NCBI GenBank assembly: GCA_014859095.1
Contig: JACUUV010000004.1
Span: 17,390-81,389, forward strand
Source of the DNA: Clostridia bacterium
GTDB taxonomy: Bacteria > Bacillota > Clostridia > Peptostreptococcales > Acidaminobacteraceae
Reading direction: 5' to 3'
DNA length: 64,000 nucleotides
The notes beneath the pieces are model-generated. The model worked only from the letters and a program-made list of their open reading frames with translations, did no database searches and had not been told where the DNA came from. Shown in pieces: positions 18,810 through 62,753 of this stretch. The number at the start of each line of letters is the position of its first letter. Position 1 is the first letter of the stretch. The translations under genes were made by a program, and so were the position numbers.

Positions 18810-18813
18810 TCTT

Positions 18814-19025: not shown

Positions 19026-19081
19026 CTCCATGGTATAATTAAAATATCAAATCGGGAAATGTCCCCAAATTTTGCGGAAAA

Positions 19082-19472: not shown

Positions 19473-19477
19473 GAAAA

Positions 19478-20965: not shown

Positions 20966-20969
20966 AAAT

Positions 20970-20998
20970 CAGGACGCATAATTCAAATATGCGTCCTG
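20970..20998. terminator. bidirectional terminator between helicase gene and argH
   Basis: 11-bp stem CAGGACGCATA / TATGCGTCCTG with a 7-nt loop. It is flanked by an A-run (upstream) and a T-rich run (downstream). Confidence 0.6.
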
Positions 20999-21001
20999 CA
21001 G

Positions 21002-22363
21002 TTATTTTTTGCATGATTTTATATGTTCCAGTACGGATTTTTTGCTGGTGGATCCTGTGGATTTTTTACCTTCAATACTTGTGAAAGGCTCAAGAGCTTT
21101 GTAAACACATTCATCGATCAAGTCGGAATAAGTTTTGAGCTCACTAAGAGAAAGTTCTTCAATCGGAATGTTCTTATCAATACAATCCAGAGTTATTTTT
21201 CCTGCAATCTCATGACACTCTCTGAATGGAAGTCCCTTACCAACGAGATAATCCGCCAAATCTGTGGCGTTTAAATACCCTTTCTTGACAGCCATTGCCA
21301 TATTTTCTTTAAGGAAAATGGAGCTGGACAACATTTCAGTGAAGACAGTGAGGCAAATATCAAGAGTTTCTACTGTATCAAAAAGACCTTCCTTATCTTC
21401 TTGCATATCCTTGTTGTATGCTAAAGGCAATCCTTTCATTACAGTCAAAATACCCATCAGGTTGCCGTACACGCGGCCTGTCTTTCCTCGAATCAATTCC
21501 GCTGCGTCAGGATTTTTCTTTTGTGGCATGATACTGCTTCCAGTGGAGAATTGATCGCTGAGTTCAATGAATTTGAATTCTGTACTGGACCAAAGTATGA
21601 TTTCTTCGGAGAATCTGCTGAGATGCATCATAATGATTGATCCGACACTCTGAAGCTCAATGACAAAATCCCTGTCACTGACAGCATCCATCGCGTTCAT
21701 GGAATATTTCGAAAAGCCGAGTTGCTCTTTCAAGTATTCACGGTCAGTCGAATAATTAACCCCGGCTAGTGCCCCCGATCCCAGTGGCATGACGTCTACA
21801 CGTCTTTTTAGATCGTTACATCGATCCAGATCTCTTAAAAACATTTCATAATAAGCCATCAGATGAAATGCCAAAGTGATGGGTTGCGCACGCTGTAAGT
21901 GAGTATAACCCGGCATGAGTGTGTCCACATTCGATTCGCTGATTTCGAGGAGAACTCTCATCAAATCATTCAGTCTTCCTGTCAGATTGTCGAGAGCTTT
22001 TTTCACATATAACCTGAGATCCACAGCAACTTGATCGTTGCGGCTTCTTGCTGTATGAAGCTTCTTGCTCAAACTTCCGACCTTTTCTGCCAACAATGAT
22101 TCAATATTCATATGAATGTCTTCATTTGCGATGGTCAGAACAGCCTCACCTGTCTCGATTTCAGCCTGAATCATCCTTAACGCGGTAATCAGTTCAGACA
22201 GTTCATTTTTTTCAAGGATTCCAATTTGGCATAGCATTTTTGCATGAGCAATTGAGCCTTCTATATCCTCTTCGTACAATTTTTGATCAAATGTAATGGA
22301 AGCGTTGAATTCGTCCATCATATGATGTGTGGACTCTTTGAAACGACCACCCCATAGTTTCAT
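21002..22363 (-). CDS. argH: argininosuccinate lyase
   Basis: MKLWGGRF...., the fumarate-lyase signature ([12 protein letters not shown]), and YTHLQRAQP. Confidence 0.92.
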
Positions 22364-23790: not shown

Positions 23791-23835
23791 TGATTGCTTA
23801 TTTCAATAATGAATGCACCTGAAATCCTCTGATTT

Positions 23836-24082
23836 CTTGGGACGAATTTCTCCGCGGTACCACCCAAATTAGCTTTTAGCTCTCTCATTATCAGTACGGA
23901 CATGTTGTCGATACTTATTCCCTTTAACGGTGGACATCCGGCTCACCTTACTGATTACTTCTTGTGAGCTGCTTGAAAAAGTTCTCAATATCATTGTTTC
24001 GTATGAGCTTACACCAACCTCATATCGCTGAACCCACGCCAATATATTTTCTTTTTCTCAAACGCATTTAATTATGAACTTA
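23836..24082 (-). promoter_or_regulatory. T-box leader (tRNA-sensing riboswitch) upstream of argG-argH
   Basis: The reverse complement of 23852..23870 reads AATTTGGGTGGTACCGCGG (T-box consensus AAnnnGGGTGGTACCGCG). An F-box-like CCGTTA (23930..23925) and AGAGAG lie upstream. An antiterminator-type helix is present (TTGGG...bulge TGGTACC...CCCAA). Confidence 0.8.
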
Positions 24083-32204: not shown

Positions 32205-32305
32205 ATCCATTGCTAGGGGTGCTGCATAGCGGGCAGCTGAGAAAAGAAACCTATTTTTTTACCCTTTGTACCTGATCCAGATCATACTGGCGTAGGAAAG
32301 CTGAT
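32205..32305 (+). promoter_or_regulatory. TPP (THI-box) riboswitch
   Basis: CTAGGGGTGC...GCTGAGA...ACCCTTTGTACCTGATCCAGATCATACTGGCGTAGGAAAGC matches the THI element core (Rfam RF00059 type). Confidence 0.9.
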
Positions 32306-32329
32306 AATCGTTTGATTTTTTTGAACGCT

Positions 32330-41254: not shown

Positions 41255-42763
41255 ATGGAACAGACATTTGCAGCAATCGATTTGGGGTCCAATGCCATAA
41301 AGCTGAAAGTTGTTCAGACTGTAGGCCAAAGTTTTATGATGCTGGAAGACTTAAGTGTCCCCATACGGGTCGGAGAAGAAGTCTATTTGTCAGGGATGAT
41401 ATCGCTGGGGACAGTCAATGAAATAGTGGAAACTTTGAAATATTTCAGACAAGTGCTATCGGAGTATGACGTGAAGACATTTGAGATCATAGCAACAAGT
41501 GCGCTCAGAGAAGCCAGCAACACCAAGAATGTGGTCGAACTGATTCATATGAAGACAGGGCTTACAGTAGAAGTCGCCGAAGATACAATTGAAAAGTTTC
41601 TCACTTATAAATCCATACGCGACCAAATGGACAACTATAAAGAAATCAGAAAAGGTTCCCTTCTTGTGGAAGTCAATTCTGGAAGTTTTGATATCAGCAT
41701 CTATGCTCAGAACAAATTGATCAAGAATGAAGAGATTAAACTTGGAATCAAGGCACTCAAGTATACTTTGATGGACCTTGAAAAAAGAACAGTACTATAT
41801 CCGAATGTGTTGAAAGAATTGGTAGAAACCAGAACCTCCCACATTTGGCCATCCATAACATCCAGGAAATTGAAGCATTTGGTTGCCATAGGTGGCGATG
41901 CGAAACTCATCAGAGAAGTCTTGTTCAACAATGATGTCGTCATTCCAATGAAGGATTTCAAAGCGATGTGCGTCAGATCTCTGGATTGTGATTATGAGGT
42001 AAGAACAATGATTGAGGCATCGGGTGCCAACTGGTATGAATTCTTGGCGACCATCATTGTGTATGATGTATTTTCTGATTTGGTTGAAACCGAATTCATC
42101 TGGATTCCAGAAATTTCGCTTAGGGATGGTATGATCGCTGAGTTGGTGGAAAAAAATAGGAATTTGATGCGATACAAGAGTTTCAACAATGATGTCTATA
42201 CTTTGACCAAGGAAATTTGTAAACGTTACAGAAGCAGTGAGAGCCATGTCAAACAGGTGGAAAAGATGGCGCTTGCTTTTTGGGGTGCCCTGAAAAAAAA
42301 TTATGAATTCAACCCTCGTGATTATTTGCTTTTGAGATTGGCCGCAAATCTCCATGAGATTGGAAAATATACTAGAATGAAGGATTATTTGGTAACAACT
42401 TATGACAAGATAAGCAATTTAAACATTTTGGGAGTGACTCATAATGAAATCATGATGATTGCCCATACCAGCAGACTCATCACGAGCTCAGAATATAAAA
42501 CCTACGGCTCTGAGCTTGAAGGTATAAGAGATGAGGACCAAATCAGGGTTTACAAGCTCGCTTCCATTCTATCCATGGCAGATGCTCTGGACAAAGGAAA
42601 GAAACAGAGGATTCATGTGGTAAAAGCCTATGTCGACGGTGGAGAATTCATCATTGAAATCACAAAAGATGAACAGTGCATTTTGGAAGAATGGAGTTTT
42701 GAATTCACAATTACCAATTTTGAAAACACGTTCGGAGTCAGACCGGAATTGAGGGAGATATGA
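41255..42763 (+). CDS. ppx: exopolyphosphatase (Ppx/GppA family) with C-terminal HD domain
   Basis: AAIDLGSNAIKL (ASKHA phosphate-1 motif) and ATSALREA.N, with a C-terminal HD region (ANLHEIGKY). Confidence 0.85.
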   Translation: MEQTFAAIDLGSNAIKLKVVQTVGQSFMMLEDLSVPIRVGEEVYLSGMISLGTVNEIVETLKYFRQVLSEYDVKTFEIIATSALREASNTKNVVELIHMKTGLTVEVAEDTIEKFLTYKSIRDQMDNYKEIRKGSLLVEVNSGSFDISIYAQNKLIKNEEIKLGIKALKYTLMDLEKRTVLYPNVLKELVETRTSHIWPSITSRKLKHLVAIGGDAKLIREVLFNNDVVIPMKDFKAMCVRSLDCDYEVRTMIEASGANWYEFLATIIVYDVFSDLVETEFIWIPEISLRDGMIAELVEKNRNLMRYKSFNNDVYTLTKEICKRYRSSESHVKQVEKMALAFWGALKKNYEFNPRDYLLLRLAANLHEIGKYTRMKDYLVTTYDKISNLNILGVTHNEIMMIAHTSRLITSSEYKTYGSELEGIRDEDQIRVYKLASILSMADALDKGKKQRIHVVKAYVDGGEFIIEITKDEQCILEEWSFEFTITNFENTFGVRPELREI

Positions 42764-44814
42764 TGAGATTATTCAACAGGGAACTGAGTTGGCTTGAATT
42801 TAATGAACGCGTCTTGCTGGAGTCAAGGGACGAATCGCTACCGCTTCTGGAAAGAGTTAAGTTCAGCGCGATTTTTTCCTCCAACCTCGACGAATTTTTC
42901 ATGGTACGTGTGGCGGCAATCAAAAATCAGATATCACTTGGTTATGAAGCGGTGGATCCTTCGGGATACACCGCCAGGGAAAAACTCATTGCAATCAACA
43001 ATAGGGTGAGAGATCTTGTGGAACTACAAAGCAAGATTCAAACCAAACTCATAAAAGCGATGGACAATGAGGGCATACATTTCTTGAGAAAAGAGAACTA
43101 TAGTGAAAATGACCTGCAGAGGCTGGAGATGATGTTCAACATGGATATTTTTCCGGTTCTGACTCCAATGGCTGTTGATTTCACGAGAAGATTTCCACTT
43201 GTCAACAACAAAGGACTTTACATTGCAGTCAAGCTATTGATCGGTTTTGACACAAAACTGGCCATTGTTCAAGTTCCAAGTGTGTTGGACCGATTCATCG
43301 TTTTTTCAAAGGACGATGACAATATCCTATATGTACTGCTTGAGGATATCATTGAGACTTTTATCGACAGATTGTTTTTGGGACATCAAGTCCTATCCAC
43401 CTCACTTTTTAGAGTCACACGAAATGGCGACCTCAATATTGTTGAAGATGAGGCAGAGGACTTGCTGATGGTCATAGAAGAGGCTGTAAGGCTTAGAAAA
43501 TGGGGAGAGACTGTGCGCCTTGAAATCATTGAGGGTGCTGATCCCTGGCTTCACAAGGTTCTGCAAGATGCTCTGATGCTCGATGTTCAACAAGTTTATG
43601 AAATCAAGGAAATCATGGATGCAACTGAGTTCTTCAAATTAAAGGCTCCAAAATCCAAAAGCGATTTGATTAAAAAACCATACAAGCCCAACAAATTGGC
43701 ATTCATGGATAAAAAGAACATTTTTAAATTCATTAAGAATGAAGATTTGTTTGTACATCATCCTTATGAATCATTCGATTGTGTGGTGGATTTCATCAAA
43801 CAGGCCAGTAAAGATCCCCATGTGCTCGCCATCAAACAGACGCTCTATAGGGTCAGTGGAGATTCACAAATCGTAAAAGCACTTTCTGAAGCCGCTGATC
43901 GTGGAAAACAGGTCACTGTATTGGTGGAATTGATGGCTAGATTTGATGAGGAAAACAATATCAACTGGGCAAAAAAACTTGAACAGCGTGGAGTACATGT
44001 CATTTATGGCATATATGGCCTTAAGACGCACTCCAAAATCACTTTGGTGGTAAGAAGAGAAAAAAATAAGATTCGAAGATATCTACATCTTGGCACAGGA
44101 AATTACAACGACCAGACATCAAAGTTATACACAGATATGGGCATATTCACTGCACGGGAGAATTTCGGATCGGATGCGTCGGTTTTTTTCAATATGGTGT
44201 CCGGCTTCGCAACCTCTGTGAATACTCATGTTCTTAGTGTTGCGCCTTTCGATTTGAGGCAGAAGTTTTATCAACTGATTGATCAGGAAATAAAATATGC
44301 GAAGGAAGGCAAGAAAGCCAAAATCATGGCTAAAATGAATTCGCTTGTGGATATTGAGATGATAGAAAAACTATATGAAGCTTCACAAGCGGGTGTGAAT
44401 ATAAGGCTTGTGGTCAGAGGCATTTGCACATTGGTTCCCGGAGTTGAGAAAATGAGTGAAAATATCGAAATCATAAGCATCGTAGGAGAATTTCTTGAAC
44501 ACAGTAGGATCTATTGCTTCCATAACAATGGTGATCCGAAGGTATTTTTGTCCAGTGCGGACTGGATGACCAGAAATCTGAACAGAAGGATTGAACTCAT
44601 GTTTCCCATAGAAGAGAAAAGTATTGTGGTGAGGATCACAAAAACATTGGAGCTGTATCTCAGTGACAATTTAAAGGCGTGGGAGCTGACCACTGAAGGG
44701 CAATATGTCAAACGCAAGTCGAGGGGCAAAACAATTCATGCCCAGGAAATATTGAAACAATTGGAATATGACAGCAACTCGACATTTATTTCAAAATTGG
44801 CGGAGAGGATGTAA
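42760..44814 (+). CDS. ppk1: polyphosphate kinase 1
   Basis: FNRELSWLEFNERVL.E......PLLER.KF.AIFSSNLDEFFMVRV, and the autophosphorylated-His region (YG..GLKTHSK..LVVR). 4-nt overlap with ppx. Confidence 0.92.
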   Translation: MMRLFNRELSWLEFNERVLLESRDESLPLLERVKFSAIFSSNLDEFFMVRVAAIKNQISLGYEAVDPSGYTAREKLIAINNRVRDLVELQSKIQTKLIKAMDNEGIHFLRKENYSENDLQRLEMMFNMDIFPVLTPMAVDFTRRFPLVNNKGLYIAVKLLIGFDTKLAIVQVPSVLDRFIVFSKDDDNILYVLLEDIIETFIDRLFLGHQVLSTSLFRVTRNGDLNIVEDEAEDLLMVIEEAVRLRKWGETVRLEIIEGADPWLHKVLQDALMLDVQQVYEIKEIMDATEFFKLKAPKSKSDLIKKPYKPNKLAFMDKKNIFKFIKNEDLFVHHPYESFDCVVDFIKQASKDPHVLAIKQTLYRVSGDSQIVKALSEAADRGKQVTVLVELMARFDEENNINWAKKLEQRGVHVIYGIYGLKTHSKITLVVRREKNKIRRYLHLGTGNYNDQTSKLYTDMGIFTARENFGSDASVFFNMVSGFATSVNTHVLSVAPFDLRQKFYQLIDQEIKYAKEGKKAKIMAKMNSLVDIEMIEKLYEASQAGVNIRLVVRGICTLVPGVEKMSENIEIISIVGEFLEHSRIYCFHNNGDPKVFLSSADWMTRNLNRRIELMFPIEEKSIVVRITKTLELYLSDNLKAWELTTEGQYVKRKSRGKTIHAQEILKQLEYDSNSTFISKLAERM

Positions 44815-44824
44815 GGTGTAAACC

Positions 44825-45994
44825 ATGTTTTTAAGTTATTTGAAAGGCTTTGCTGAAGCAAGTGCCTCATATAGTGAACAACCTGAGTTTGAAACAGCTC
44901 ATCTGGAAAATGTCGTGCTGCATGCCATGCACCTTTGCAAAAATAGAGGGTTGGATGAAAAACTCGTTATCGCAATTGCAATGGGGCATGATTTGGGTAG
45001 GTCGCATCTGAAAATCCATGGTAAAAAGCATGCCAGGGCTGGAGCGAAGTTGATGAAAAGACTTATGGCGGATTCAAATTTCAGCATAGAGGAACAGAGG
45101 ATCATATGTGATGCGATTGAACATCACAATGAAAAGGATAAGATTCATGAGGGATATGCCGAACTCATCAAAGACGCCGATTCAATGGCACATAAAGATG
45201 ATGGGATTTTGCTTGATGATGACCGATTTGAACACTTGAGGATCATGGCGAGTGCATGCGGTCAATTGGCAATGTCCTATGCACCCGTATCCGATTGGAT
45301 CAGAGCATACAGAGAGCATGTGGAAATACTTAAAGCATTATATCTTAATTCGGAAAAGCGTAATGATCATCCTGATGAATGGGTTCATGAGATAAGAACT
45401 GAGACCAGAAAGCTGAGGACAATGTTGGCGTTGCTGTCTCCATCGGAACAAAAAGTCCAAAAAAATTTGAAGAAATGGGCTTTGGAGATGTCAGAAGCCA
45501 GATTTCTCCATGTTGCCTCAATGAAATCAGAACGTTTGTCTCCAAAAGTCAAAAAAAAATTAACTCGATTGTATAAGGAACTCAGGAAGAAGTTGGATGA
45601 AAAGAAGGTTTTAAACAGAATTGAGATGTTGAATGTTGAGATCGGGGACGAAAAAATCGTATCCGATGCATTATCCAGGTATGAGGATTTGATTATGAAT
45701 GTAACTCCAAAGCGAATGCATAACTTGAGAGTGAAGGGAAAAGCATTCAAATATCTTACACAATTGGGACTGATGGAATTTTCACCAAAGGAAATGTTGG
45801 ATGCCATCATTAGGTTGCATGATTTGCTTGGGGATTATGTCGATTATCTGGAAATGGCTGACTACTTCAAAGATTCAAGTTATAAAAATGACGCAAATAA
45901 GTTGTTGGAAGAGATTCAGGGCGAGATTTTTTTTATTAGAAAAATCATTCTTTGTTGTACAACAACAAAGAATGTGCGGTATAATTGGTTGTAA
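44825..45994 (+). CDS. HD-domain / CHAD-domain fusion protein
   Basis: N-terminal HD domain (H...AIAMGHDLGR...HA...IEHHN...DADSMAH). The C-terminal about 200 aa is helical with CHAD-like basic repeats (WVHEIRTETRKLRTML..., MHNLRVKGKAFKY). It follows ppx-ppk1 after 10 nt. Confidence 0.6.
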   Translation: MFLSYLKGFAEASASYSEQPEFETAHLENVVLHAMHLCKNRGLDEKLVIAIAMGHDLGRSHLKIHGKKHARAGAKLMKRLMADSNFSIEEQRIICDAIEHHNEKDKIHEGYAELIKDADSMAHKDDGILLDDDRFEHLRIMASACGQLAMSYAPVSDWIRAYREHVEILKALYLNSEKRNDHPDEWVHEIRTETRKLRTMLALLSPSEQKVQKNLKKWALEMSEARFLHVASMKSERLSPKVKKKLTRLYKELRKKLDEKKVLNRIEMLNVEIGDEKIVSDALSRYEDLIMNVTPKRMHNLRVKGKAFKYLTQLGLMEFSPKEMLDAIIRLHDLLGDYVDYLEMADYFKDSSYKNDANKLLEEIQGEIFFIRKIILCCTTTKNVRYNWL

Positions 45995-47856: not shown

Positions 47857-49389
47857 ATGATATATATAGGCGTTTTGCTGGCATCCGTTTTTTGGATTTT
47901 GGTCTTTTTCATCCTGTTGAATAGGATGGAAAAAGACAATAAGGCACTTGTAGCATTGATCAAAAAATATGCACAAGGAAATTTTCTTGCGGAAAATGAT
48001 CAGAAGTTAAGATTCAAGAGCAACAAAAGAATGTCAGGTGAAATCAATGGTCTTCAGAAAACCATGAAGGACTGGCTGTACAACATGCTGAAATCTGAGC
48101 TTGAACTATCCAAATACGCCAAAATGTTGCAGGAAAATGCTGAGGAGTCTTTAAAACACATGTCTTTGATCGAATCTCAAATCAACATCATCAAAGGAAA
48201 CTCTCATGATATTGCAAGTGCTTCCCTTGAAAACGCTTCAGTATCAGAGGAGTTGCAGAGTGCCAATGACCAGATGGCGAATGACAGTCATGAGTATATG
48301 GAAGTCACAGAAGGCACGCTTAAGAATATTCAAGTTGGGAAGCATGCTATCGTCGGAGCACTTGAAGGCATCGATGAAGTGGAACTGAAAATGAGGAGCT
48401 CGGTTGAGAAAGTCAATGCATTACAAGATATGATGGACGCCATACAGACCATGACACAAGGTATCTCAAAAATATCCGAACAAACCAATCTGTTGGCACT
48501 CAACGCTTCCATCGAATCAGCACGTGCCGGTGAAGCTGGAAGGGGATTTGCGGTAGTGGCCAATGAAGTCACAAAATTGGCTGATGAAAGTTCAAGACTT
48601 GCTGAAGATATCGATCGTAAAGTCATGGCGATTGCAGAGAGCATGAAATCAGTTGTGCTTGAGATCAACAATGGTATGAAAACAACACAAACACTCAAAA
48701 GCAACAATCAGGAAGCCATTTCTCATCTGGACGAGATGGTCAAAGGTGCTGAAGGCATGCTGACTTTTATTCGTAGCATTTCAATTGGAATCCAAGAACA
48801 ACTCAAGGCGACTGAAGTATTATCAGGCAATGTCGAGAAGCTTGCAGGCATAGCGGCAGATTCTGATGGCGCGACAGTTGAGGCGGGAAAAGATGTTGAG
48901 GATCATCGTCATAAAACGAATGAGAATGCGATACTCGCTCAATCGATCAAAAGCATTTCCCACAGTTTGAATGCTTTTGTACAGATGTTTGATGAGGCAC
49001 TGAGTGAGGAGTTGTTCAGTACAGGTGAAAAACTTGCTGATATTATGAAACATCAAAAAATTGACAACGCTTATTTGCAGAAATTCTCCAAGGAAACCGG
49101 GATTTCCGAGTTCTACATTACGGATGAAAACGGGGTGACGGTATTATCAAATAATCCCGCAGGAATCGGATTCACAATTGAAAATGATCCTACAACACAA
49201 GCTTATCCCTTTTATGCGATTCTTAAGAACCCTAAACATACGGTATCTCAATCCATGATGGTAAGAGATATTGACGGAAAACACTTCAAATTCGTAGGTT
49301 TGTCCCGTACGGATCAAAGTGGAATCATCCAGTTGGGACTCAGTCTAGAAGATTTGTTGAAATTCAGAGGAAGATATGCGTTACTTTAA
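47857..49389 (+). CDS. methyl-accepting chemotaxis protein-type signalling protein with C-terminal extra domain
   Basis: One N-terminal TM helix, then a highly conserved MCP hairpin tip (TNLLALNASIESARAGEAGRGFAVVANEVTKLADES), then a non-coiled C-terminal domain of about 130 aa (...FYITDENGVTVLSNNPAGIGF...). Confidence 0.8.
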   Translation: MIYIGVLLASVFWILVFFILLNRMEKDNKALVALIKKYAQGNFLAENDQKLRFKSNKRMSGEINGLQKTMKDWLYNMLKSELELSKYAKMLQENAEESLKHMSLIESQINIIKGNSHDIASASLENASVSEELQSANDQMANDSHEYMEVTEGTLKNIQVGKHAIVGALEGIDEVELKMRSSVEKVNALQDMMDAIQTMTQGISKISEQTNLLALNASIESARAGEAGRGFAVVANEVTKLADESSRLAEDIDRKVMAIAESMKSVVLEINNGMKTTQTLKSNNQEAISHLDEMVKGAEGMLTFIRSISIGIQEQLKATEVLSGNVEKLAGIAADSDGATVEAGKDVEDHRHKTNENAILAQSIKSISHSLNAFVQMFDEALSEELFSTGEKLADIMKHQKIDNAYLQKFSKETGISEFYITDENGVTVLSNNPAGIGFTIENDPTTQAYPFYAILKNPKHTVSQSMMVRDIDGKHFKFVGLSRTDQSGIIQLGLSLEDLLKFRGRYALL

Positions 49390-53775: not shown

Positions 53776-54253
53776 TGGAAATGTCAGTATTCAGTTGAAT
53801 GTCAATCGTGAAATCCATGAAGTGGTTGTGATGCCTCAAGATACATTATTGAGAGTAATGAGAGAAAAGATTGGATACACAGGCCCTAAAGCGGGATGTG
53901 AGAACGGAGATTGTGGGGCTTGTACGGTTTTGATGGATGGAAAACCTGTTAAGGCATGTCTCATGCTTGCAGTTGAAGCAGTAGGAAAAGAAGTATTGAC
54001 CGTAGAAGGTCTTGAAGATACCGAGATTCAAAAGGCATTCATATCCGAAGGTGGATTCCAGTGTGGTTTTTGTACAGCTGGATTTCTTATGAACGCATTT
54101 GCATTGCTTGAGACAAATCCTGATGCGGACGAAGCGGAAAAGAAAGATTGGCTCAGCGCCAATCTGTGCCGTTGTACTGGATACGAAGGTATAGAAAAGG
54201 CACTGACTCTCGCACAAAAGAGAATTCAGGAAAAGAATAATAATAAAAGATAG
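53762..54253 (+). CDS. [2Fe-2S]-binding small subunit of Mo-hydroxylase (cluster 1)
   Basis: The Cys motifs CENGDCGACTV, CGFCTAG and CRCTGY are the two 2Fe-2S sites of CoxS/XdhC-type small subunits. Confidence 0.88.
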   Translation: MIHYSGNVSIQLNVNREIHEVVVMPQDTLLRVMREKIGYTGPKAGCENGDCGACTVLMDGKPVKACLMLAVEAVGKEVLTVEGLEDTEIQKAFISEGGFQCGFCTAGFLMNAFALLETNPDADEAEKKDWLSANLCRCTGYEGIEKALTLAQKRIQEKNNNKR

Positions 54254-54284
54254 GAAGAGCCCCTTTAGGGGCTCTTCCTATCTT
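54252..54284. terminator. bidirectional terminator between operon A and the AAA+ gene
   Basis: 12-bp GC-rich stem AGGAAGAGCCCC-TTTA-GGGGCTCTTCCT followed by ATCTTTT. Confidence 0.75.
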
Positions 54285-55496
54285 TTACGCATTTAGTGCC
54301 ATTCGCTCATTTGTAAGTCTTTTATAGGTATTGTCGATGAATTCCAAAACATTTTTGATTTCTGGATATTGTATAGTGTCTTTATAAGTGGTAGAGATAT
54401 TTTCAATCAGTTTCATCAGATCGGATAATGCCTGCTTATAAAGCTTGTCAATATCAAAATTTGGAAAATCCTTTTGATTTTCAATGTGTCGATCCAATTC
54501 ATCGAGAATGGATGTAAGGACTTTCTCGTATTTCTTTGCATCCCTTCCAGGTTTATCCAAAGTTTCATAAATGACTTCTTTGACCTTCGGAATATCCTCT
54601 TCTTTCTGCCAGAATGAAAATTGAAGGGCATTTAAATCTTCTGGGATACAATGGGTTCTACCTTCAAATAGTGCACTTGCCTTGACCAGATTTCTGCTGA
54701 GTTTCAATCGTCTTGGTGAAATGGAGATATTGTGCTTTTCCTCTAGTTGAGTGGCAATGGTCACCATGCTTCTCGCTATTTCGGAACTCATCTTTATATT
54801 GGGAAGTTCGTCTTGGATCAACATGAGTTCTGATAATTTGATTCTGGATTCACAGGTCAAATCATCGTCCATCAGAATCATCTTAACTTTATTGTCGGGA
54901 TCTTTTAAAGGTTTGAGATGATACCGTGCCAGGAATCTGTCGTGAAGTGCCTGAAGTTTGAAGTCTGTTTCTTCAGCGTCTAGATCATCCTTTTGTTTTG
55001 GGAAAAAATTGGTGTCAGCCATGAAGAATCGAAGGTTGGTTTTTATGGTCTCGGTTCCATTTTTGAACTCACCTTCGTTCAGAATGGTCAATAAGCCAGA
55101 GTTGGCTACTTGATCGCTGACTCTGTAGAATTCTGAGCAAAAGGCTATCACGGCGTCAGGTAAAAAACCTTTGTAATGGCGTTTGATAATTCCGTGTGTT
55201 TTAAAATAGGCGATGTCCGGAGCCCCGAAAATATTGTTTGGGGATATGTCAGCTCCCATTTGAATGTGAAAATAGGGGGTGCCTTTTGCTTGATCGAAAT
55301 CCATGTGAGCCACAAATTCTCTTAGAATGGCAGATTTTGCTATCCCGGGTTCTCCCAGTACAATCATGTGGGTCCTTGAAATCATGGATAGCATCAGACA
55401 GGTCACAAATTCATCCACTTCATAGTATTTGGAAGCGATGTGGTTGCGGATATCGTGTAATTTTTGGCTTGCAGCTATGAGTTCATTTGTTTTCAT
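54285..55496 (-). CDS. MoxR-class AAA+ ATPase, RavA-like
   Basis: Walker A GEPGIAKS (55355..55332). GFLPDAVIAFCSEFYRVSDQVANSGLLTILNEGEFKNG aligns with E. coli RavA [37 protein letters not shown]. The Walker B Asp is replaced by Ser. Confidence 0.75.
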   Translation of the reverse strand: MKTNELIAASQKLHDIRNHIASKYYEVDEFVTCLMLSMISRTHMIVLGEPGIAKSAILREFVAHMDFDQAKGTPYFHIQMGADISPNNIFGAPDIAYFKTHGIIKRHYKGFLPDAVIAFCSEFYRVSDQVANSGLLTILNEGEFKNGTETIKTNLRFFMADTNFFPKQKDDLDAEETDFKLQALHDRFLARYHLKPLKDPDNKVKMILMDDDLTCESRIKLSELMLIQDELPNIKMSSEIARSMVTIATQLEEKHNISISPRRLKLSRNLVKASALFEGRTHCIPEDLNALQFSFWQKEEDIPKVKEVIYETLDKPGRDAKKYEKVLTSILDELDRHIENQKDFPNFDIDKLYKQALSDLMKLIENISTTYKDTIQYPEIKNVLEFIDNTYKRLTNERMALNA

Positions 55497-55509
55497 AAAT
55501 CGTATCCTC

Positions 55510-57519
55510 CTATATCAAAGTGTATAATCGTTGATTCGTCAAGTTGTTCCAATTGCCTAAATTATCGCCTCTGATGTCGAGGATCTCATCTGAAATGAGG
55601 CCGATGTCACCGTAGTCGTTATAAGTATATGAATGCATAATTATGGTATAGAGTTTGAACTTTCGTTCTCTTTTGAGCTCGAGGAATTTCTCTCTGAAAT
55701 TCGGATGAATCTCACATTGACCATCTGTAATGAATAAAATATCGCTGTTTTTATGCTTGGCTTGTTTTATGATTTCCATGGCGGTGGAAAGTGGTTTTTC
55801 AAAGTCTGTTCCACCGCATATGAAAGTATCCATGATGTCCAGCACATCTCCCGCAGTTATTGTGAGCGGGTTGATTTCCTTGATGTATAAAGGCTCAGAC
55901 GCAGATGCGAATTGGATCAGTACCAACTTCCGTTTTTGAATTTTTGAAATTTCCAGAATCGCCAAAATATGTGCAAGTGTCTCATCGAATTTCTTTCCTT
56001 GCATGGATCCTGAACCGTCGTAACATAAAATGATAGGTCCCTTTCTTTTATCTTTTTTGGCTGCCATCTCAATAGTCAGAAGATTGTCATTGAGATATCT
56101 GTCGTAGAAATCATTCTCAAATGCATCGATATCCAGTGCGATACCGATGAATTCATCCTCAATGAGTCCGTCGATGTCGTTAGAGTAACGTATGCCATCT
56201 TGTGGCGTTACTTTCTCCCGCTTTTTTTTATAGGCTATGGTGCTGGCGTGTTTTTTGTTTTTTCCCACTTTGTTGATGAATTCTATGAATCGGGCAGATT
56301 TAGTGCGACTATACAAGGATATGATCTCATCAAATGTAAGATCGGAAATACTGCGTCCTGGTATACCAAGCGTCTTTATTTGATTGTTGAAGTGATCGAG
56401 TTTTTCACTAGTGGCTACTATGATGTCATCCCAGTCCAGCGACTCCATTTTTTTCCTGAGGTCATCGCGTTTGTCTATGAGTTCGTTATTAAGTTCAGGG
56501 ACCATTTTCAGTATCTCGGTTTCAGAAGGTGGGTTCTTTGGGGATGCTTTTCCATCGATGATCTTATTTTCATCCACATGTTCATTGTCGTCAATAGTAT
56601 CCATTTGTTTATGGAAAGGAGAGGCTCCTTGTGATTCGCCGATGGAAAAGGATTTTATAAAAGGTTTGAACCGGGACTCCAGATCTTCTTTGACATATTC
56701 TTCGTAATCTGAATCGACTTCGCCTTCTTTTCTAAGTACATCTTCCAGGGCGTCCTCGACAGCGGTGGATGTTTCCGATTGATCGAGATATTCCCTCACT
56801 TTTTCAATGTAGTCAGTAAGTGGCTTTTTATCCTCGTTTTTATAGGGTATTGAAGGTAATACTTTATCAGGTTGGGAGTCTGAATGATCAGAGTGCCTCG
56901 AAGACGCATCATTTTTACTGAGCAGTGGGATCAATGTCATCAAAAATTCTTTGGGGTCTTCTGTTTCAGATGAAGATAGAGATAAAATCTCATTGATCAT
57001 ATTGATTTCTATTGAATTCAGGATATCAGTAAATTCATAGTTTTGAAAGTCGTTACTTATAGTGTTTGACAATAAATTGTTGTATGACTCTATATGCTCT
57101 TCCATCTCGCTCAGAAATTCGGTTCCCCTCAGTTTTTCGAGCAGTTGATCCAGTAGGAGTTTCATGGCAAGATAAGATTCACCTTTTGAGCCTGCGCACC
57201 TCATCCTAAGAATTGTAGTTCTGGGATGTGAGGCGAATGATTCAATGATGACATCGTGCATTGAAACGGAATCTTCGGAGTTGAGTTTTATTACAATTTT
57301 GTATAAAATAAGATATAGATCCATTGAAATTGCATCGAACTCGGGAATGAGTCTTTGACCGTTGTCGATGAACTGTCTCAACAAATTTGAGTTTGCAAGG
57401 GTTTCCGTGAATATTAGCTCATCCATTAAGTTGTGGGTTACTATACTTTGCAAAACATCACCGCCTTTATATGATGTAGAAATGTTTACCCTAAAGTACA
57501 CTTCATAATCTGATAACAA
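55510..57519 (-). CDS. VWA-domain protein of the CoxE/ViaA type (long N-terminal region, acidic linker, C-terminal MIDAS VWA)
   Basis: The last 176 aa (55513..56040) have a complete MIDAS (ILCYDGSGSM, GGTDF, ITDG). The junction ...LLTIEMAAKKDKRKGPIILCYD is typical of the CoxE/ViaA family. The start is uncertain: the track start TTG 57519 has no SD and lies inside a sigma-54-like motif. The alternatives are TTG 57453 and ATG 57426. Confidence 0.7.
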   Translation of the reverse strand: MLSDYEVYFRVNISTSYKGGDVLQSIVTHNLMDELIFTETLANSNLLRQFIDNGQRLIPEFDAISMDLYLILYKIVIKLNSEDSVSMHDVIIESFASHPRTTILRMRCAGSKGESYLAMKLLLDQLLEKLRGTEFLSEMEEHIESYNNLLSNTISNDFQNYEFTDILNSIEINMINEILSLSSSETEDPKEFLMTLIPLLSKNDASSRHSDHSDSQPDKVLPSIPYKNEDKKPLTDYIEKVREYLDQSETSTAVEDALEDVLRKEGEVDSDYEEYVKEDLESRFKPFIKSFSIGESQGASPFHKQMDTIDDNEHVDENKIIDGKASPKNPPSETEILKMVPELNNELIDKRDDLRKKMESLDWDDIIVATSEKLDHFNNQIKTLGIPGRSISDLTFDEIISLYSRTKSARFIEFINKVGKNKKHASTIAYKKKREKVTPQDGIRYSNDIDGLIEDEFIGIALDIDAFENDFYDRYLNDNLLTIEMAAKKDKRKGPIILCYDGSGSMQGKKFDETLAHILAILEISKIQKRKLVLIQFASASEPLYIKEINPLTITAGDVLDIMDTFICGGTDFEKPLSTAMEIIKQAKHKNSDILFITDGQCEIHPNFREKFLELKRERKFKLYTIIMHSYTYNDYGDIGLISDEILDIRGDNLGNWNNLTNQRLYTLI

Positions 57520-57531
57520 TTATAATGCCAA
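57515..57531 (-). promoter_or_regulatory. sigma-54-like -24/-12 element upstream of the VWA gene (weak -12)
   Basis: Minus strand reads TTGGCATTATAATTGTT, against TTGGCATGACAATTGCT at 7932..7916. The GG-N10 spacing is right, but the -12 dinucleotide is GT instead of GC. Confidence 0.3.
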
Positions 57532-57675
57532 ATTTACTAATAATGTTTGTTGTTTACTGCTAAATAAAAAGACTATATCGTCTGAAAATTTAGTCTATTA
57601 CAATAATGAGATAAATGTGTAAAAAAAGATATAATAAGTGTGAGACGTACTGAATTACTTTTGGAGGTCATTAAT

Positions 57676-58506
57676 ATGAAAACATTTGAATACTTAAGAC
57701 CAACGTCATTAAAAGAAGCGTTGGACATTCTAAAGAATCATGACGGAAATGTATCCATTCTAAATGGAGGAACTGACCTGATTGTTAGAATGCGTGAGGG
57801 TCACTCATCACCGGAAGTTGTTATGGACATCAAAAAAATACCGGGACTCGATCAGATACAAGTGGATGAGGACCGTATCACAATAGGTGCTACGGTATTA
57901 CTCAATGATCTGGGATTGAACGAGGTCATTAAAACGAGATATCCTTACCTGGCACAAGCCGCTTTGTCAGTCGGATCCAAACAAGTCAGAAACAGAGCGA
58001 CATGTATAGGAAACATTTGCAACGCATCGCCACTTGCAGACACGGCAACTCCACTTTTGGCACTAAATGCAGATGTCCACATTTATGGGGAAGAGGGTAT
58101 AAAGACTGTACCGCTCAAAGATTTTTTTGTGTTTGTCAGAAAGACAGTTCTTAAACCTAATGAAATAGTAACGGGAATTTCATTCAAACAAGATCCGGAA
58201 GCACTTGGCATATTCACAAAAATGTCACGACGCAAAGAAGTGGATCTTTCTACAGTGTGCTCCACTGTAATGCGTACCGGTACGGAATATAGAATCAGTT
58301 GCGGAGCTGTCGCTCCAACACCGGTGAGACTCTTCAAGACGGAAGCGTTTTTAAGTGGAAAGACATTGACTGGAGAAGTAATCGAAGAAGCATGCAAATT
58401 GGCTGAAGGCGAAGTCGTTCCAATCAGTGACATCAGGGCTTCAGAAGCTTACAGACGTGAAATGGTCGGAGTAATGCTTCGTCGCGCACTCTCAGAATGG
58501 CTATAG
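57676..58506 (+). CDS. FAD-binding subunit of Mo-hydroxylase (cluster 2)
   Basis: MKTFEYLRPTSLKEALDIL......ILNGGTDL is FAD_binding_5-like, with a CO-dehydrogenase flavoprotein C-terminal domain (SDIRASEAYRREM). Confidence 0.85.
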   Translation: MKTFEYLRPTSLKEALDILKNHDGNVSILNGGTDLIVRMREGHSSPEVVMDIKKIPGLDQIQVDEDRITIGATVLLNDLGLNEVIKTRYPYLAQAALSVGSKQVRNRATCIGNICNASPLADTATPLLALNADVHIYGEEGIKTVPLKDFFVFVRKTVLKPNEIVTGISFKQDPEALGIFTKMSRRKEVDLSTVCSTVMRTGTEYRISCGAVAPTPVRLFKTEAFLSGKTLTGEVIEEACKLAEGEVVPISDIRASEAYRREMVGVMLRRALSEWL

Positions 58507-58516
58507 GAGGATAATC

Positions 58517-58987
58517 ATGAAAACTATGATAGAATTTACACTCAATGGCGAGGTTGTCGAGTGTTTGGTAGATAATCAAAGAACACTTTTAAAAATGATC
58601 AGGGAAGATTTTGACCTCACTGGAGCCAAGGAAGGTTGCGGCGCAGGTGAGTGCGGTGCTTGTACAATCATTGTGGACGGCAAGGCACTCAATGCTTGTC
58701 TCGTTCTCGCTGTTGAAGCGGACGGTACTGAGATTACAACTATAGAAGGTTTGGTAGTGGATGGAGAACTTGATCCGCTTCAAGTATCTTTTATAGACAA
58801 TGCTGCACTTCAATGTGGCTATTGCACTCCTGGCATGATCATGACCGCAAAAGCGATGCTGGAAGAAAATCCACATCCAACTGAAAATGAAATCAGAGAA
58901 GGCATCAGCGGCAACTTATGCCGTTGTACCGGCTATAAAAAAATAATAGAGGCAATCCAAGTGGTTGCTGACCAAAATAAAGCGTAG
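58517..58987 (+). CDS. [2Fe-2S]-binding small subunit of Mo-hydroxylase (cluster 2)
   Basis: Cys motifs [18 protein letters not shown] and CRCTGY. Confidence 0.9.
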
Positions 58988-58990
58988 GAG

Positions 58991-61312
58991 GTGGGAGACT
59001 TGAAATTTGTAGGAACTAGCGTAAAACGTGTCGACGGAGTAAAAAAAGTCACAGGCTCCTTAAAATATGTGGATGATATCAAATTATCAAAAATGCTTTA
59101 CGTCGCTGTAAAGAGAAGTCCTCATCCACACGCAAAAATATTGAGCATCAATTTTGAAAAAGCTTTGGCCATCAAAGGAGTCAAAGATATAATCACTGGA
59201 GATTTATTCACAAAACGTGGAGGACTTTACCTTGAAGACAAGAACTTTTTAGCTGTAGGTAAAGTAAGATATAGAGGAGAAGCTGTAGTGGCTGTTTGCG
59301 CTATTTCAGAGGAAATTGCCCAATCTGCGCTTGAGTTCATCGATATTGAATACGAAGTGTTACCGGCAGTCACCAACGCCAAAGATGCCATGAAACCGGA
59401 TTCGCCTCTTGTGCACCCGGATTTGGGTGAGTATAAATGGGCTCCTGTATTTTTCCCGGTACCTGGCACTAATATTTCCAATCACTATACACTTCGAAAA
59501 GGGGATGCGAAAAAAGCATTTGAGACTGCGGATTTTGTTGTTGAAAACGAGTTTTATGTTCCTCACGTGCAGCACGTACCTATCGAGACACATACAGCAA
59601 TCGCTCAAATGGACGCTGATGGGTTCATGACAGTATGGGCAAGTTGTCAATCGCCATATGCTGTGAGACAAGCCCTTTCAGAAGCTTTCGATCTCCCACT
59701 CAATAGACTGCGCGTACTTTCACCTGCGGTTGGTGGCGGATTTGGATCAAAAGCGGGTACCACACTGGAAGGCATTTTGATTCCTTTTGCAAAAAAATTC
59801 CCGGATCACCCGGTCAAACTGACTTATTCAAGACAAGATGAGTTTGAAAACGCTTATGTGAGACAAGGTCTACATGCGAGAATCAAAACAGGCGTCAATA
59901 AAGATGGTAAAATAATCGCGGTTGAAAATGAGTTCATTTGGGATGGAGGCGCTTACAATGAGTATGGCGTCAACATCGCAAAAGCGGCCGGATACGCTTC
60001 GGCAGGACCATATGACATTGAAAACGTATATACGGATTCATATTGTGTTTATACAAATCACCCTGTAGGGGGACCATACAGAGGATTCGGCATGAGTGAG
60101 ATTCATTTCGGTATCGAACAAAACCTCGATATGGTAGCTGAGCGAATTGGTATTGATCCAGTAGAAATCAGACGCATCAACGGAATGAAGCCGGGTGGCG
60201 TTACCGGTACCGGTGAAGTCGTCGAAGTTGCCGGATTGATGGAATGTCTGGATATCGCTGTGGATGAAATCAAATTCTACGAAAAAAGTGAAACTGTAAG
60301 TCCCACAAAAGTAAGGGGCAAGGGCATCGCATGCGGTTGGAAGGCCCCATCCATGCCGACAAATGCGGCTTCCTCGGCAATCATCAAATTGAACGAGGAT
60401 GGAACCGCCCATCTACTTGTAAGTGCACAGGATATCGGACAGGGTTCTGATACGGTCATGACACAAATAGCTGCGGAAGTACTTTCCATTTCACCAGAGA
60501 AGATTACCATTAGAACCGGTGATACGGACCAAACACCATATGAGTGGCAAACGGTTGCTTCCAGAATCACTTATTCTGCGGGTAGAGCAGTCTTTGAAGC
60601 AGCAAATGATGCAATGAACCAGTTGCTCGAACTTGCCCAAATCAAAATAGGGCTCTCCAAACGCGACTTGGAACTTAGAGACGGTTATGTGGTCTCAAAA
60701 ATCTATCCAGATAGAAAAGTAGCTATTTCAGAACTTGCTCTGGGACTTACTTTTGAGGATGGATCAGGTATTCATGGACCGATTATCGGTCGTGGTGCAT
60801 TTATTCCTCCAAATGTTCGTAACGCAGACAAAAAAACCGGTCTTGGGGAGCATCCGGTTGTATTCTGGACGTATGGAGCTCAAGGTATTGAAGTTGAAGT
60901 TGATCTCGAGACTGGGGCAGTAAAAATTCTCAAAGTCGTCTCAGTATTCGATGTCGGTAAAGTCATGAATCCACAATTGCTTGAAGGACAAATGGAAGGT
61001 GCGATTGCACAAGGTATTGGAACAGCACTTTTTGAGGAACTTATGCTTAAAGAGGGTAAAGTTCTCAACCCATCATTTGTCGATTACAAGATTCCTACAG
61101 CAGACGATATGCCAGAGATGGTGATAAAGTTTGTGGAAAATCCGGAGGATACTGGCCCATTTGGAGCCAGAGGAGTTGCCGAACCGGCGATGGTTCCTAC
61201 CGCACCCGCAATAGCGAATGCGATATACGCTGCTACTGGTATTCGCTTAAATACAATGCCGCTGACTGCTGAAAGAGTATTGAATGCAATCAAGGCGAAG
61301 AACAACGGTTAA
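58991..61312 (+). CDS. molybdopterin-binding large subunit of a xanthine-dehydrogenase-family hydroxylase (cluster 2)
   Basis: VKRVDGVKKVTGSLKY.DD, GGGFGSK, and the catalytic Glu region GARGVAEPA. The true start may be TTG 59000, which is 8 nt after SD AGGAGG, rather than GTG 58991. Confidence 0.85.
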   Translation: MGDLKFVGTSVKRVDGVKKVTGSLKYVDDIKLSKMLYVAVKRSPHPHAKILSINFEKALAIKGVKDIITGDLFTKRGGLYLEDKNFLAVGKVRYRGEAVVAVCAISEEIAQSALEFIDIEYEVLPAVTNAKDAMKPDSPLVHPDLGEYKWAPVFFPVPGTNISNHYTLRKGDAKKAFETADFVVENEFYVPHVQHVPIETHTAIAQMDADGFMTVWASCQSPYAVRQALSEAFDLPLNRLRVLSPAVGGGFGSKAGTTLEGILIPFAKKFPDHPVKLTYSRQDEFENAYVRQGLHARIKTGVNKDGKIIAVENEFIWDGGAYNEYGVNIAKAAGYASAGPYDIENVYTDSYCVYTNHPVGGPYRGFGMSEIHFGIEQNLDMVAERIGIDPVEIRRINGMKPGGVTGTGEVVEVAGLMECLDIAVDEIKFYEKSETVSPTKVRGKGIACGWKAPSMPTNAASSAIIKLNEDGTAHLLVSAQDIGQGSDTVMTQIAAEVLSISPEKITIRTGDTDQTPYEWQTVASRITYSAGRAVFEAANDAMNQLLELAQIKIGLSKRDLELRDGYVVSKIYPDRKVAISELALGLTFEDGSGIHGPIIGRGAFIPPNVRNADKKTGLGEHPVVFWTYGAQGIEVEVDLETGAVKILKVVSVFDVGKVMNPQLLEGQMEGAIAQGIGTALFEELMLKEGKVLNPSFVDYKIPTADDMPEMVIKFVENPEDTGPFGARGVAEPAMVPTAPAIANAIYAATGIRLNTMPLTAERVLNAIKAKNNG

Positions 61313-61344
61313 CGAAGAAGCTATTAATTTAGGGGAGGGGTTTT

Positions 61345-62583
61345 ATGTCTAAAAAAAATGGGCAAGCAGTTAATGTCAATGAGCACGCAATTACTGATGT
61401 ATCGGCACTTGGAACACCCAAAATGCTCACATTGGGCTTACAGCACGCATTTACAATGTTTGGTGCTACGGTACTTGTTCCAATCATCACAGGTCTAGAC
61501 GTATCGGTAGCATTGTTCTTGGCCGGTGTAGGTACTCTTTTATTTCACCTTGTAACAGGTGGTATGGTACCTGCATTTTTAGGATCTTCATTTGCATTCA
61601 TTGCGCCAATGCTCGCTGTGGCAAGCAGTCACGGACTTGATTATGCGCGAGGCGGTATCGTTGTCGCTGGTATCATCTATCTGATTCTTGCGGGTTTGAT
61701 GCAAGTATTCGGTACAGACAGAATCATCAAGTTTTTCCCACCGATTGTCACTGGTCCAATCATCCTTGTTATCGGTCTTAAGCTTGCACCGGTAGCTATT
61801 GATATGGCATCTTCCAATTGGCTATTGGCAATCATTGCATTCACCATCGTGACTATTGTCAGCGTATTTGCAAAAGGATTCTTAAAAGTAATTCCTGTTA
61901 TTATCGGTTTGATTGGCTCTTACATTATTGCTGCAGTATTCGGATTGATTGATTTCACTCCAATCAATGATGCGGCAATCTTCGGAGTTCCAGCATTTTC
62001 ACTTGCAAAATTCAATATTGATGCCGTGTTGACTGTAGCTCCAATAGCACTTGCAACTATGGTCGAGCACATCGGTGACGTTATTGCAATCGGTGCAACT
62101 GTAGAAAAGGACTTTATCAAAAAGCCTGGTTTATCCAGAACACTTCTTGGTGATGGTCTTGCCACATCGGTTTCAGCTATGTTTGGTGGACCTGCGAATA
62201 CTACTTACTCTGAGAATACAGGCGTATTGGCACTTACAAAAGCTTGGGATCCAAAGATTATGAGAATCGCAGCTGTATTTGCAATTGTTTTGGGTCTTGT
62301 GCCTAAATTAGGTGCACTGATTGGAACTATCCCAACAGCAGTAATTGGTGGTATCTCCATAATTCTTTTCGGTATGATCGCGGCTATCGGTGCAAGAACA
62401 CTTGTTGAAAACCAAGTGGATTTCAACAAATCCAGAAACTTGATCATTGCAGCAGTTATAGTTGTTTTAGGACTTGGTGGAGCAGTGCTTCCAATCAACA
62501 TTGGCGCATTGGCCCTCAACATTGAAGGTATGGCTCTTGCAGCAATCGTCGGCATTTTCTTAAACATCGTTTTACCAGAATAA
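61345..62583 (+). CDS. NCS2/NAT-family nucleobase:cation symporter, uracil-permease (UraA/PyrP) type
   Basis: LGLQHAFTMFGATVLVPIITG, FLGSSFAFIAP, MVEHIGD and the NAT signature ENTGVLALTK align closely with E. coli UraA (SLQHLFAMFGATVLVP, YLGSSFAFISP, EH.GH, GENIGVMAITR). Confidence 0.75.
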   Translation: MSKKNGQAVNVNEHAITDVSALGTPKMLTLGLQHAFTMFGATVLVPIITGLDVSVALFLAGVGTLLFHLVTGGMVPAFLGSSFAFIAPMLAVASSHGLDYARGGIVVAGIIYLILAGLMQVFGTDRIIKFFPPIVTGPIILVIGLKLAPVAIDMASSNWLLAIIAFTIVTIVSVFAKGFLKVIPVIIGLIGSYIIAAVFGLIDFTPINDAAIFGVPAFSLAKFNIDAVLTVAPIALATMVEHIGDVIAIGATVEKDFIKKPGLSRTLLGDGLATSVSAMFGGPANTTYSENTGVLALTKAWDPKIMRIAAVFAIVLGLVPKLGALIGTIPTAVIGGISIILFGMIAAIGARTLVENQVDFNKSRNLIIAAVIVVLGLGGAVLPINIGALALNIEGMALAAIVGIFLNIVLPE

Positions 62584-62640: not shown

Positions 62641-62753
62641 TTAGTTGGTTACAACAATAATGAAATATAACGCAAAACATTGTATCTCAACAACAATAAA
62701 TAGTGGAATCAATACACAGAATATTTAGTATAATATTGTTGGGAGGTATAATC

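Follow-up and report, generated by a model that had tools for sequence, protein, structure and literature searches.

MoxR-class AAA+ ATPases and their VWA partners remodel specific client proteins, leading to metal or cofactor insertion. In NorQD, which serves FeB insertion in cNOR, the VWA domain extends a finger into the pore of the hexamer, the C terminus of NorD contacts NorQ, and the N-domain binds the lid; the unresolved linker of NorD is essential for FeB insertion, and linker and C terminus are both functionally essential. In the CoxD-CoxE(-CoxF) system of Oligotropha carboxidovorans, sulfuration of the Mo site of CO dehydrogenase, which takes place on the folded enzyme and depends on MgATP, requires CoxD. 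In RavA-ViaA, found in E. coli and other Gammaproteobacteria, ViaA stimulates RavA through its middle domain and binds FrdA, a flavoprotein, through its VWA domain (PMC10585395). MoxR and vWA proteins also occur in ternary conflict systems, which have a third core component and, C-terminal to the vWA domain, effector domains that vary (Kaur et al. 2020; PMC7159879). Here we describe a MoxR/VWA gene pair from a clostridial bacterium (Acidaminobacteraceae; assembly GCA_014859095.1, contig JACUUV010000004.1, positions 17,390 to 81,389), first noticed in a sequence-only reading of this 64-kb stretch of DNA (“the window”). The pair lies between two operons, A and B, for xanthine dehydrogenase (XDH)-family molybdenum hydroxylases; operon A converges on it and operon B diverges from it. 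A literature search on selenium-dependent hydroxylases, MoxR, and RavA-ViaA returned no link of MoxR, RavA, or VWA proteins to clostridial or selenium-dependent xanthine dehydrogenases.

The pair is probably a client-dedicated MoxR/VWA chaperone for the divergently encoded XDH-family Mo hydroxylase of operon B, itself probably selenium dependent, acting alongside XdhC, YqeB, and YqeC; we hold this view with moderate confidence. The evidence is comparative. Scanning a single genome for each species gave 17 loci with full-length relatives of the VWA protein, to which metagenomic loci were added; all were annotated by tblastn and precomputed Pfam matches, and one (L015) was left out of the synteny assessment because its sequence was too short. 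Full-length homologues are few (∼41 clusters, from Clostridia). Among the carriers of the 17 loci are Acidaminobacter hydrogenoformans DSM 2784, Acidaminobacter sp. JC074, and metagenome-assembled genomes of Fusibacter, Peptostreptococcaceae, Acidaminobacteraceae, and Tissierellia. In each of the ∼27 distinct loci with enough sequence, a VWA gene followed by a MoxR gene stands head to head with FAD-FeS-Mo orthologues of operon B. The VWA proteins of these loci are 32 to 96% identical, and the linkage holds down to 32 to 36%. The reciprocal test, which started from the operon B FAD subunit in metagenomes, agrees: all relatives of this subunit at ≥59% identity with more than ∼1.3 kb of upstream DNA have the pair, and relatives at ≤55% do not. 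The invariant head-to-head synteny and the reciprocal test together argue for a dedicated helper of the operon B enzyme. What lies on the far side of the pair varies: operon A occupies it in ∼12 loci, and at least 10 others have a permease, an amidase, or a Bmp-type ABC transporter there or show no recognizable gene. The sequence-only reading had suggested a tie of the pair to one or both hydroxylases and proposed checking the linkage of orthologous pairs to XDH-family genes across genomes; the tie stands for operon B, present in all assessable loci, but falls for operon A, which is absent from about half of them.

More distant relatives place this linkage in context. A search with the MoxR protein returned a tight clade at ≥55% identity and a sister clade at 47 to 50%, followed by a gap to ≤30%. 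In the sister clade (L088, positions 8085 to 12977; also L089 and L090), the MoxR gene precedes a gene for a 594-residue full-length VWA homologue (hhalign probability, 100%). Distant ViaA-like relatives from Binatia and other groups, which are similar only in the C-terminal half, likewise have the MoxR-then-VWA order; a MoxR match lies just upstream in 54 of 63 such loci (L024 to L086), and a Mo-subunit gene lies within 10 kb in only 3 of the 63. The reversal of the ravA-viaA gene order that had been pointed out for this pair is thus real, and it is specific to the present clade, as both the sister clade and the distant relatives have MoxR first. Sister-clade sequence turns up often in metagenomes (72 index blocks). 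Its setting is of a dehydratase/activase type: the sister pair is preceded by genes for 451- and 171-residue proteins without a Pfam match, a BcrAD_BadFG protein, and two DUF2229/HGD-D-like proteins.

By its sequence, the ATPase belongs to the MoxR class, with a single AAA+ module, Walker A, sensor 1, Arg finger, sensor 2, and a MoxR-type lid. Its Pfam matches are bpMoxR (PF20030; 4.7e-28, the best), AAA_lid_8 (9.5e-14), and AAA_5 (1.2e-10). The nearest PDB entry by sequence is E. coli RavA (3NBX; E = 4.4e-25), with residues 16 to 339 aligned to RavA residues 16 to 327, and the likeness to RavA claimed at the outset is therefore upheld. The NCBIfam RavA model (NF010054) scores 112 bits, against a cut-off of 681, and matches only over positions 9 to 329 of 498. 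Because the chain stops ∼60 residues past the lid, the ATPase has no LARA domain, and no LARA-type Pfam match was found. The core is accordingly classed as RavA-like, but the protein not as a RavA equivalog, as the match does not run the full length through the triple-helix and LARA regions.

The nucleotide site has one departure from the canonical pattern. Walker A, the sensor-1 Asn, the Arg finger (Arg of HDRF), and sensor 2 (SPRRLK) are conserved in 20 orthologues, whereas Walker B, canonically hhhhDE, reads IAF[C/F]SE in 79 of the 88 database clusters of the clade. The corresponding motif is YGAE (Ala-Glu) in the sister clade and FLDE in all RavA-like/bpMoxR relatives at ≤30% identity. The catalytic Glu is retained and the Mg-coordinating Asp is lost, and this loss co-varies with the presence of an Asp at position −2 relative to the sensor-1 Asn (MADTN, versus AASNE in canonical relatives). 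The sensor-1-strand Asp may be a relocated Mg ligand, or the ATPase may be slowed; ATPase activity of the protein is presumed. Judged from the alignments, the Ser-Glu Walker B is an unusual feature within MoxR/VWA chaperone pairs, and its clade-wide loss of Asp in an otherwise intact AAA+ site offers a natural experiment for MoxR enzymology.

The VWA partner divides into four parts, as defined by an alignment of 22 full-length homologues and an AlphaFold2 model with a mean predicted local distance difference test (pLDDT) score of 71.7. Only VWA_2 passes in Pfam. The match to VWA_CoxE (PF05762) is not significant (E = 0.15; 11.9 bits, gathering score 26.4), and the NCBIfam ViaA model (NF008230) matches at 60 bits (cut-off, 500) over positions 235 to 458 only, i.e., the end of the middle region and the VWA domain. 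On the strength of these two comparisons, the junction is of the ViaA type rather than the CoxE type. Of the two likenesses originally suggested, ViaA and CoxE, the former alone holds, together with the complete metal ion-dependent adhesion site (MIDAS), of which D479-x-S481-x-S483, T549, and D577 are invariant in the 22 homologues. In a broad sense, the protein is best described as a ViaA-like adaptor, with its N-domain, middle region, C-terminal VWA domain with MIDAS, and adjacent MoxR gene; by its model scores it is not a ViaA equivalog. No transmembrane segment or membrane association is predicted (highest 19-residue Kyte-Doolittle mean, 1.35 to 1.5). A Foldseek search with the full-length model returned matches to the VWA domain only (ANTXR2, integrin I domains, the MDN1 MIDAS domain, and NorD [9qhe_G and 9qh8_G]).

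The N-terminal region had escaped recognition in the sequence-only reading. Modeled separately, the N-domain is well defined (AlphaFold2 pLDDT, 87; predicted TM score [pTM], 0.80), and its sequence profile matches 203 representative proteins. The ten that were checked, of 456 to 1052 residues, were all sub-threshold ViaA matches, which suggests that the N-domain is a module of the broad ViaA-like family. The PDB gave no match to the N-terminal region by sequence-profile search, and Foldseek with the N-domain model found nothing in the PDB below E = 5, including the nuclear magnetic resonance (NMR) structure of the ViaA N terminus (7UGC), NMR ensembles and small helical bundles being hard targets. 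The linker that follows is as strongly acidic as had been noted, with 23% Asp plus Glu, a net charge of −23, and a low-confidence model. The previously unrecognized region is thus most readily explained, from profile and composition, as the module with which proteins of a broad ViaA-like family begin, plus an unusually long acidic linker.

How the pair compares with the described systems depends on whether descent or working is considered. RavA is nearest to the ATPase over the whole AAA+ module and lid (AAA_lid_8), and the VWA protein matches ViaA in the middle region and VWA domain and is likewise built of a helical N-domain, a flexible middle part, and a VWA domain at the C terminus. Unlike RavA-ViaA, the pair is without LARA (403 residues, versus 498 in RavA), scores far below both equivalog cut-offs, and has the VWA-first gene order, the Ser-Glu Walker B, and a much longer acidic linker. 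Its N-domain model is not aligned by Foldseek with the VAN fold of ViaA (7UGC, a hard target), and it is found, in Clostridia, in the context of a soluble Mo hydroxylase as its likely client rather than Frd, Nuo, or LdcI. By analogy, CoxD/CoxE is the best functional precedent: there, too, MoxR and VWA genes lie beside an XDH-family Mo hydroxylase with L, M, and S subunits and beside XdhC-like genes. The ATPase nevertheless groups with RavA/bpMoxR and not with CoxD, the VWA_CoxE match fails, membrane association is not predicted, and the setting is anaerobic and selenium linked rather than that of a Cu-S-Mo cluster. With NorQ-NorD, the model for the mechanism proposed below, the pair shares an N-domain, a long linker, a VWA domain that Foldseek aligns with that of NorD, and a conserved C terminus, but NorQ belongs to the CbbQ/NorQ/GvpN-type MoxR subfamily, both the client and the metal differ, and no sequence or fold similarity was detected outside the VWA domain. 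The pair may therefore resemble CoxD/CoxE and NorQ/NorD in its proposed working while being orthologous to neither. XdhC, YqeB, and YqeC share its neighborhood and presumably its maturation pathway; they are of protein families unrelated to the pair and co-occur with it, without substitution.

The pair is a sealed two-gene operon on the minus strand, with a divergent promoter region, Shine-Dalgarno-coupled genes, and a bidirectional terminator (Table 1). This arrangement, a unit convergent with operon A through a shared terminator and divergent from operon B, is as first described. At its longest, the VWA open reading frame spans 55510 to 57519 (minus strand; 669 amino acids); the TTG start at 57453, preceded by AAAGGCGG, is that chosen by the gene caller on the matching, near-identical public contig. 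The gap between the VWA and MoxR genes is 13 nt. Within it, AGGAGG lies 8 nt before the MoxR ATG and is overlapped by the TAG stop of the VWA gene. The terminator hairpin stands between the 2Fe-2S gene of operon A, which ends at 54253, and the converging MoxR stop. The GC content of the pair resembles that of neighboring genes and gives no sign of recent insertion.

On the other side, a sigma-70 scan across the pair region gave scores no better than those of shuffled sequence. A 14-nt block, ACTAAATTTTCWGA (57581 to 57594, minus strand), is kept in the VWA/operon B intergenic regions of loci whose VWA identity is as low as 41 to 48%, and a second copy with 2 mismatches lies at 62716 to 62729 (minus strand), ∼25 nt upstream of the start of the pucR gene beyond the permease. 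The block shows no statistical enrichment in the window; its conservation makes it a lead, as a candidate operator common to the pair, operon B, and pucR. An Rfam scan of the window placed no riboswitch of the molybdenum cofactor (Moco) or purine type close to either hydroxylase operon.

Table 1. Coordinates of the MoxR/VWA pair, its protein regions and motifs, and adjoining elements within the 64-kb window
Feature	Position	Strand	Description and evidence
ViaA-like VWA adaptor gene	55510..57453	-	647 aa from TTG 57453; ORF (open reading frame) calls, family alignment, Pfam VWA_2, partial NCBIfam ViaA
Predicted N-terminal helical domain, residues 1-133	57055..57453	-	Conserved motifs HNLLD, LYK, LRxRTxGS, LRG; pLDDT 75-93 in full-length model
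Acidic linker, residues 134-318	56500..57054	-	Poorly conserved, mostly low confidence, probably disordered
Predicted helical pre-VWA region, residues 319-469	56047..56499	-	Conserved; pLDDT 85-91 over 330-410; C-terminal part aligns with ViaA middle-domain/VWA junction
VWA domain, residues 470-647	55513..56046	-	Complete MIDAS, conserved C-terminal tail; Pfam, alignment
MIDAS elements	DxSxS 56005-56019; Thr 55801-55815; Asp 55717-55731	-	Alignment
RavA-like MoxR AAA+ ATPase gene	54285..55496	-	403 aa, without LARA domain; Pfam, NCBIfam, PDB sequence match
Walker A GEPGIAKS	55332..55355	-	Conserved; alignment
Deviant Walker B IAFCSE	55131..55148	-	MoxR residues 117-122; Ser-Glu for Asp-Glu, clade-wide
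Sensor-1 strand MADTN	55008..55022	-	MoxR residues 159-163; clade-specific Asp two residues before sensor-1 Asn
Bidirectional terminator hairpin	54244..54287	.	20-bp stem; common to operon A and the MoxR-VWA pair
Divergent intergenic region, VWA gene/operon B	57454..57675	.	222 bp; conserved block ACTAAATTTTCAGA at 57581-57594
Operon B, proposed client	57676..62583	+	FAD 57676-58506; 2Fe-2S 58517-58987; Mo 58991-61312; xanthine/uracil permease 61345-62583; Pfam

Past the permease, the operon B strand continues with pucR, allH, fdrA/allF, a 59-aa open reading frame, allG, a cyclase-family gene, a family-III CoA-transferase gene, xdhC, yqeB, and yqeC. The part beyond the window was read from a public contig (L087) that differs by 1 base in 12,656 nt; on it, the continuation (positions 11410 to 21239, equivalent to ∼62.75 to 72.6 kb of the window) forms an extended purine/oxamate-type catabolic and selenium-cofactor cluster. 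No homologue was found anywhere inside the window by tblastn with XdhC, YqeB, YqeC, and MoCF queries, and to that extent the reported lack of XdhC is correct. As a property of the operon it is an artifact of the window edge: xdhC-yqeB-yqeC lies at the equivalent of ∼70.5 to 72.6 kb, ∼6.5 kb past the window end. XdhC on L087 has both Pfam XdhC domains, YqeB (TIGR03309) scores 336 bits there and 379 bits in L004 (NCBIfam equivalog cut-off, 220), and YqeC has a Pfam match on L087 and scores 172 bits (TIGR03172; cut-off, 73) in L002. Elsewhere, xdhC and yqeB lie within operon B itself, beside the pair, in L004, L006, L017, and L021, accompanied in the first three by a MoCF_biosynth gene, and yqeC lies near the pair in L002/L012 and L016. 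The pair and xdhC, which had been expected to be anticorrelated, thus occur together.

YqeB and YqeC are genetic markers only, with no known mechanism, and the co-localization of their genes makes it probable, on this sequence evidence, that the operon B hydroxylase is selenium dependent. The Mo subunit scores under every NCBIfam equivalog cut-off (the best being 4-hydroxybenzoyl-CoA reductase alpha, 578 bits, and XdhA, 552 bits), and so the substrate is read from context: the permease and PucR, not the sequence of the enzyme, point to purine catabolism.

The mechanism proposed here draws on NorQ/NorD, CoxD/CoxE, and RavA/ViaA, and both the physical contact with the hydroxylase and the step assisted are suggested by that analogy. 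The ViaA-like protein would use its VWA domain, its middle region, and its conserved C terminus to dock on a hexamer of the RavA-like ATPase and would contact the hydroxylase through the MIDAS, the N-terminal helical domain, or both. Nucleotide-driven movement of the ATPase, relayed through the long acidic linker, could then transiently open or hold the folded apo-enzyme for a late maturation step at the buried Mo center. In that step, the cofactor brought by XdhC/YqeB would be inserted or a labile Se/S ligand installed. The pair would cooperate with XdhC, YqeB, and YqeC without replacing them, and its role as a supplement to XdhC is suggested by the presence of xdhC-yqeB-yqeC in the same gene string or inside operon B. 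A more specific proposal is that the pair is an ATP-dependent remodeler that opens the folded apo-hydroxylase for a labile selenium ligand or for selenated Moco carried by YqeB/XdhC, with an Mg-binding Asp that has shifted out of Walker B into the sensor-1 strand. This is quite unlikely as it stands but, if true, would be the selenium counterpart of CoxD-dependent sulfuration.

Maturation of the operon B enzyme is favored by the retention of the motifs of a MoxR/VWA machine (MIDAS, Walker A, catalytic Glu, sensor 1, Arg finger, and sensor 2) as well as by synteny, but several observations weigh against it. Synteny alone cannot name the assisted step, and the support consists of synteny and homology. 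The pair is, from its VWA_CoxE score, not a CoxD/CoxE orthologue. The Walker B Ser could weaken or abolish ATP hydrolysis, which would make the ATPase a nucleotide-gated holder rather than a motor. The sister clade of the pair adjoins no Mo enzyme. As that clade and the distant relatives are mostly not beside Mo enzymes, the XDH linkage is, on present comparisons, a property of this clade, and one that concerns operon B and not operon A. Finally, a related XDH operon with a permease and nearby PucR, AllH, and amidase genes (L104, positions 1 to 16819) has no MoxR/VWA pair in 16.8 kb, and the pair is therefore not generally required for such a pathway. The FAD and Mo subunits of that operon are 55 and 66% identical, respectively, to those of operon B, making it a natural comparator for the contribution of the pair.

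The main rival to a maturation role is modulation of activity, in which the pair acts on the assembled hydroxylase, e.g., by binding the FAD subunit and tuning or shutting electron flow, and has no part in cofactor insertion. We consider this unlikely. The nearest characterized relatives are RavA and ViaA, and ViaA binds FrdA via its VWA domain, RavA-ViaA lowering Frd activity (PMC10585395); however, what the repression of Frd means physiologically is itself a matter of dispute, and most client-linked MoxR/VWA pairs of known role, namely, NorQD and CoxDE, are maturation factors. A slow ATPase that works like a switch would be in keeping with the deviant Walker B, and XdhC, YqeB, and YqeC are already on hand for maturation. 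Synteny fits modulation and maturation equally well, and no sequence feature favors regulation over assembly. That the pair serves the operon A hydroxylase, or both hydroxylases equally, is very unlikely. The convergent arrangement with a terminator in common, seen in the window and in ∼12 loci, is what speaks for it, but at least 10 pair-bearing loci are without the operon A Mo enzyme in the fetched flanks (L002/L012, L004/L017, L006, L016, L018 to L023, L099, L100, and L103), all of them with operon B, and it is with operon B that the regulatory region is shared.

The two remaining explanations also go back to the sequence-only reading, one to its stated alternative and the other to its premise of a missing XdhC. 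An independent stress or conflict module of the bpMoxR/ternary-system type, inserted by chance, would agree with the best Pfam match of the ATPase (PF20030), but it is highly improbable given the invariant linkage to a catabolic operon over ∼27 loci and the native-like composition of the pair. This idea was largely refuted by the lack of a PADLOC match, of a VMAP, iSTAND, FtsH, or beta-propeller protein as third component, and of an effector domain C-terminal to the VWA domain. Replacement of a missing XdhC-type Moco insertase, for its part, is next to impossible. It drew on the empty tblastn search of the window, and it is refuted by the co-occurrence of the pair with xdhC, both just outside the window, where an xdhC homologue had been named in advance as telling against the idea, and inside operon B of other loci.

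The linked pair is a concrete extra candidate for a factor that helps to build or insert the labile selenium cofactor of selenium-dependent Mo hydroxylases, and it is carried by at least one cultured host, Acidaminobacter hydrogenoformans DSM 2784. It joins CoxD/CoxE as a second MoxR/VWA pair that was recruited, independently of the first, to the side of an XDH-family enzyme, which suggests that AAA+-assisted access to a buried Mo site is a recurrent solution. Its reach is limited: only a narrow clostridial group carries it, and in the 16.8 kb recovered, a related cluster of XDH genes does without it. If the pair acts in selenium-ligand installation, its importance rises substantially.

Several features of the surrounding DNA were also recorded. 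Operon A, on the plus strand, comprises in order genes for an amidase, a CMD-family protein, an MCP-signalling-domain protein, a flavoprotein, and the Mo, FAD, and 2Fe-2S subunits (Pfam). The 510-residue MCP-signalling-domain protein (47857 to 49389, plus strand) is unusually sited, its gene being embedded in a catabolic operon and overlapping the next. This MCP-type gene sits between those for the CMD-family protein and an MSMEG_0569-family flavoprotein, an arrangement kept in L003 and L009 to L011. Immediately upstream of operon A lies a polyphosphate cluster (41255 to 45994, plus strand) that encodes a Ppx/GppA phosphatase, a polyphosphate kinase, and a CHAD-domain protein. At gathering score, Rfam matches the window in two places only, at a T-box leader at 23835 to 24071 (minus strand) and a TPP riboswitch at 32205 to 32315 (plus strand).

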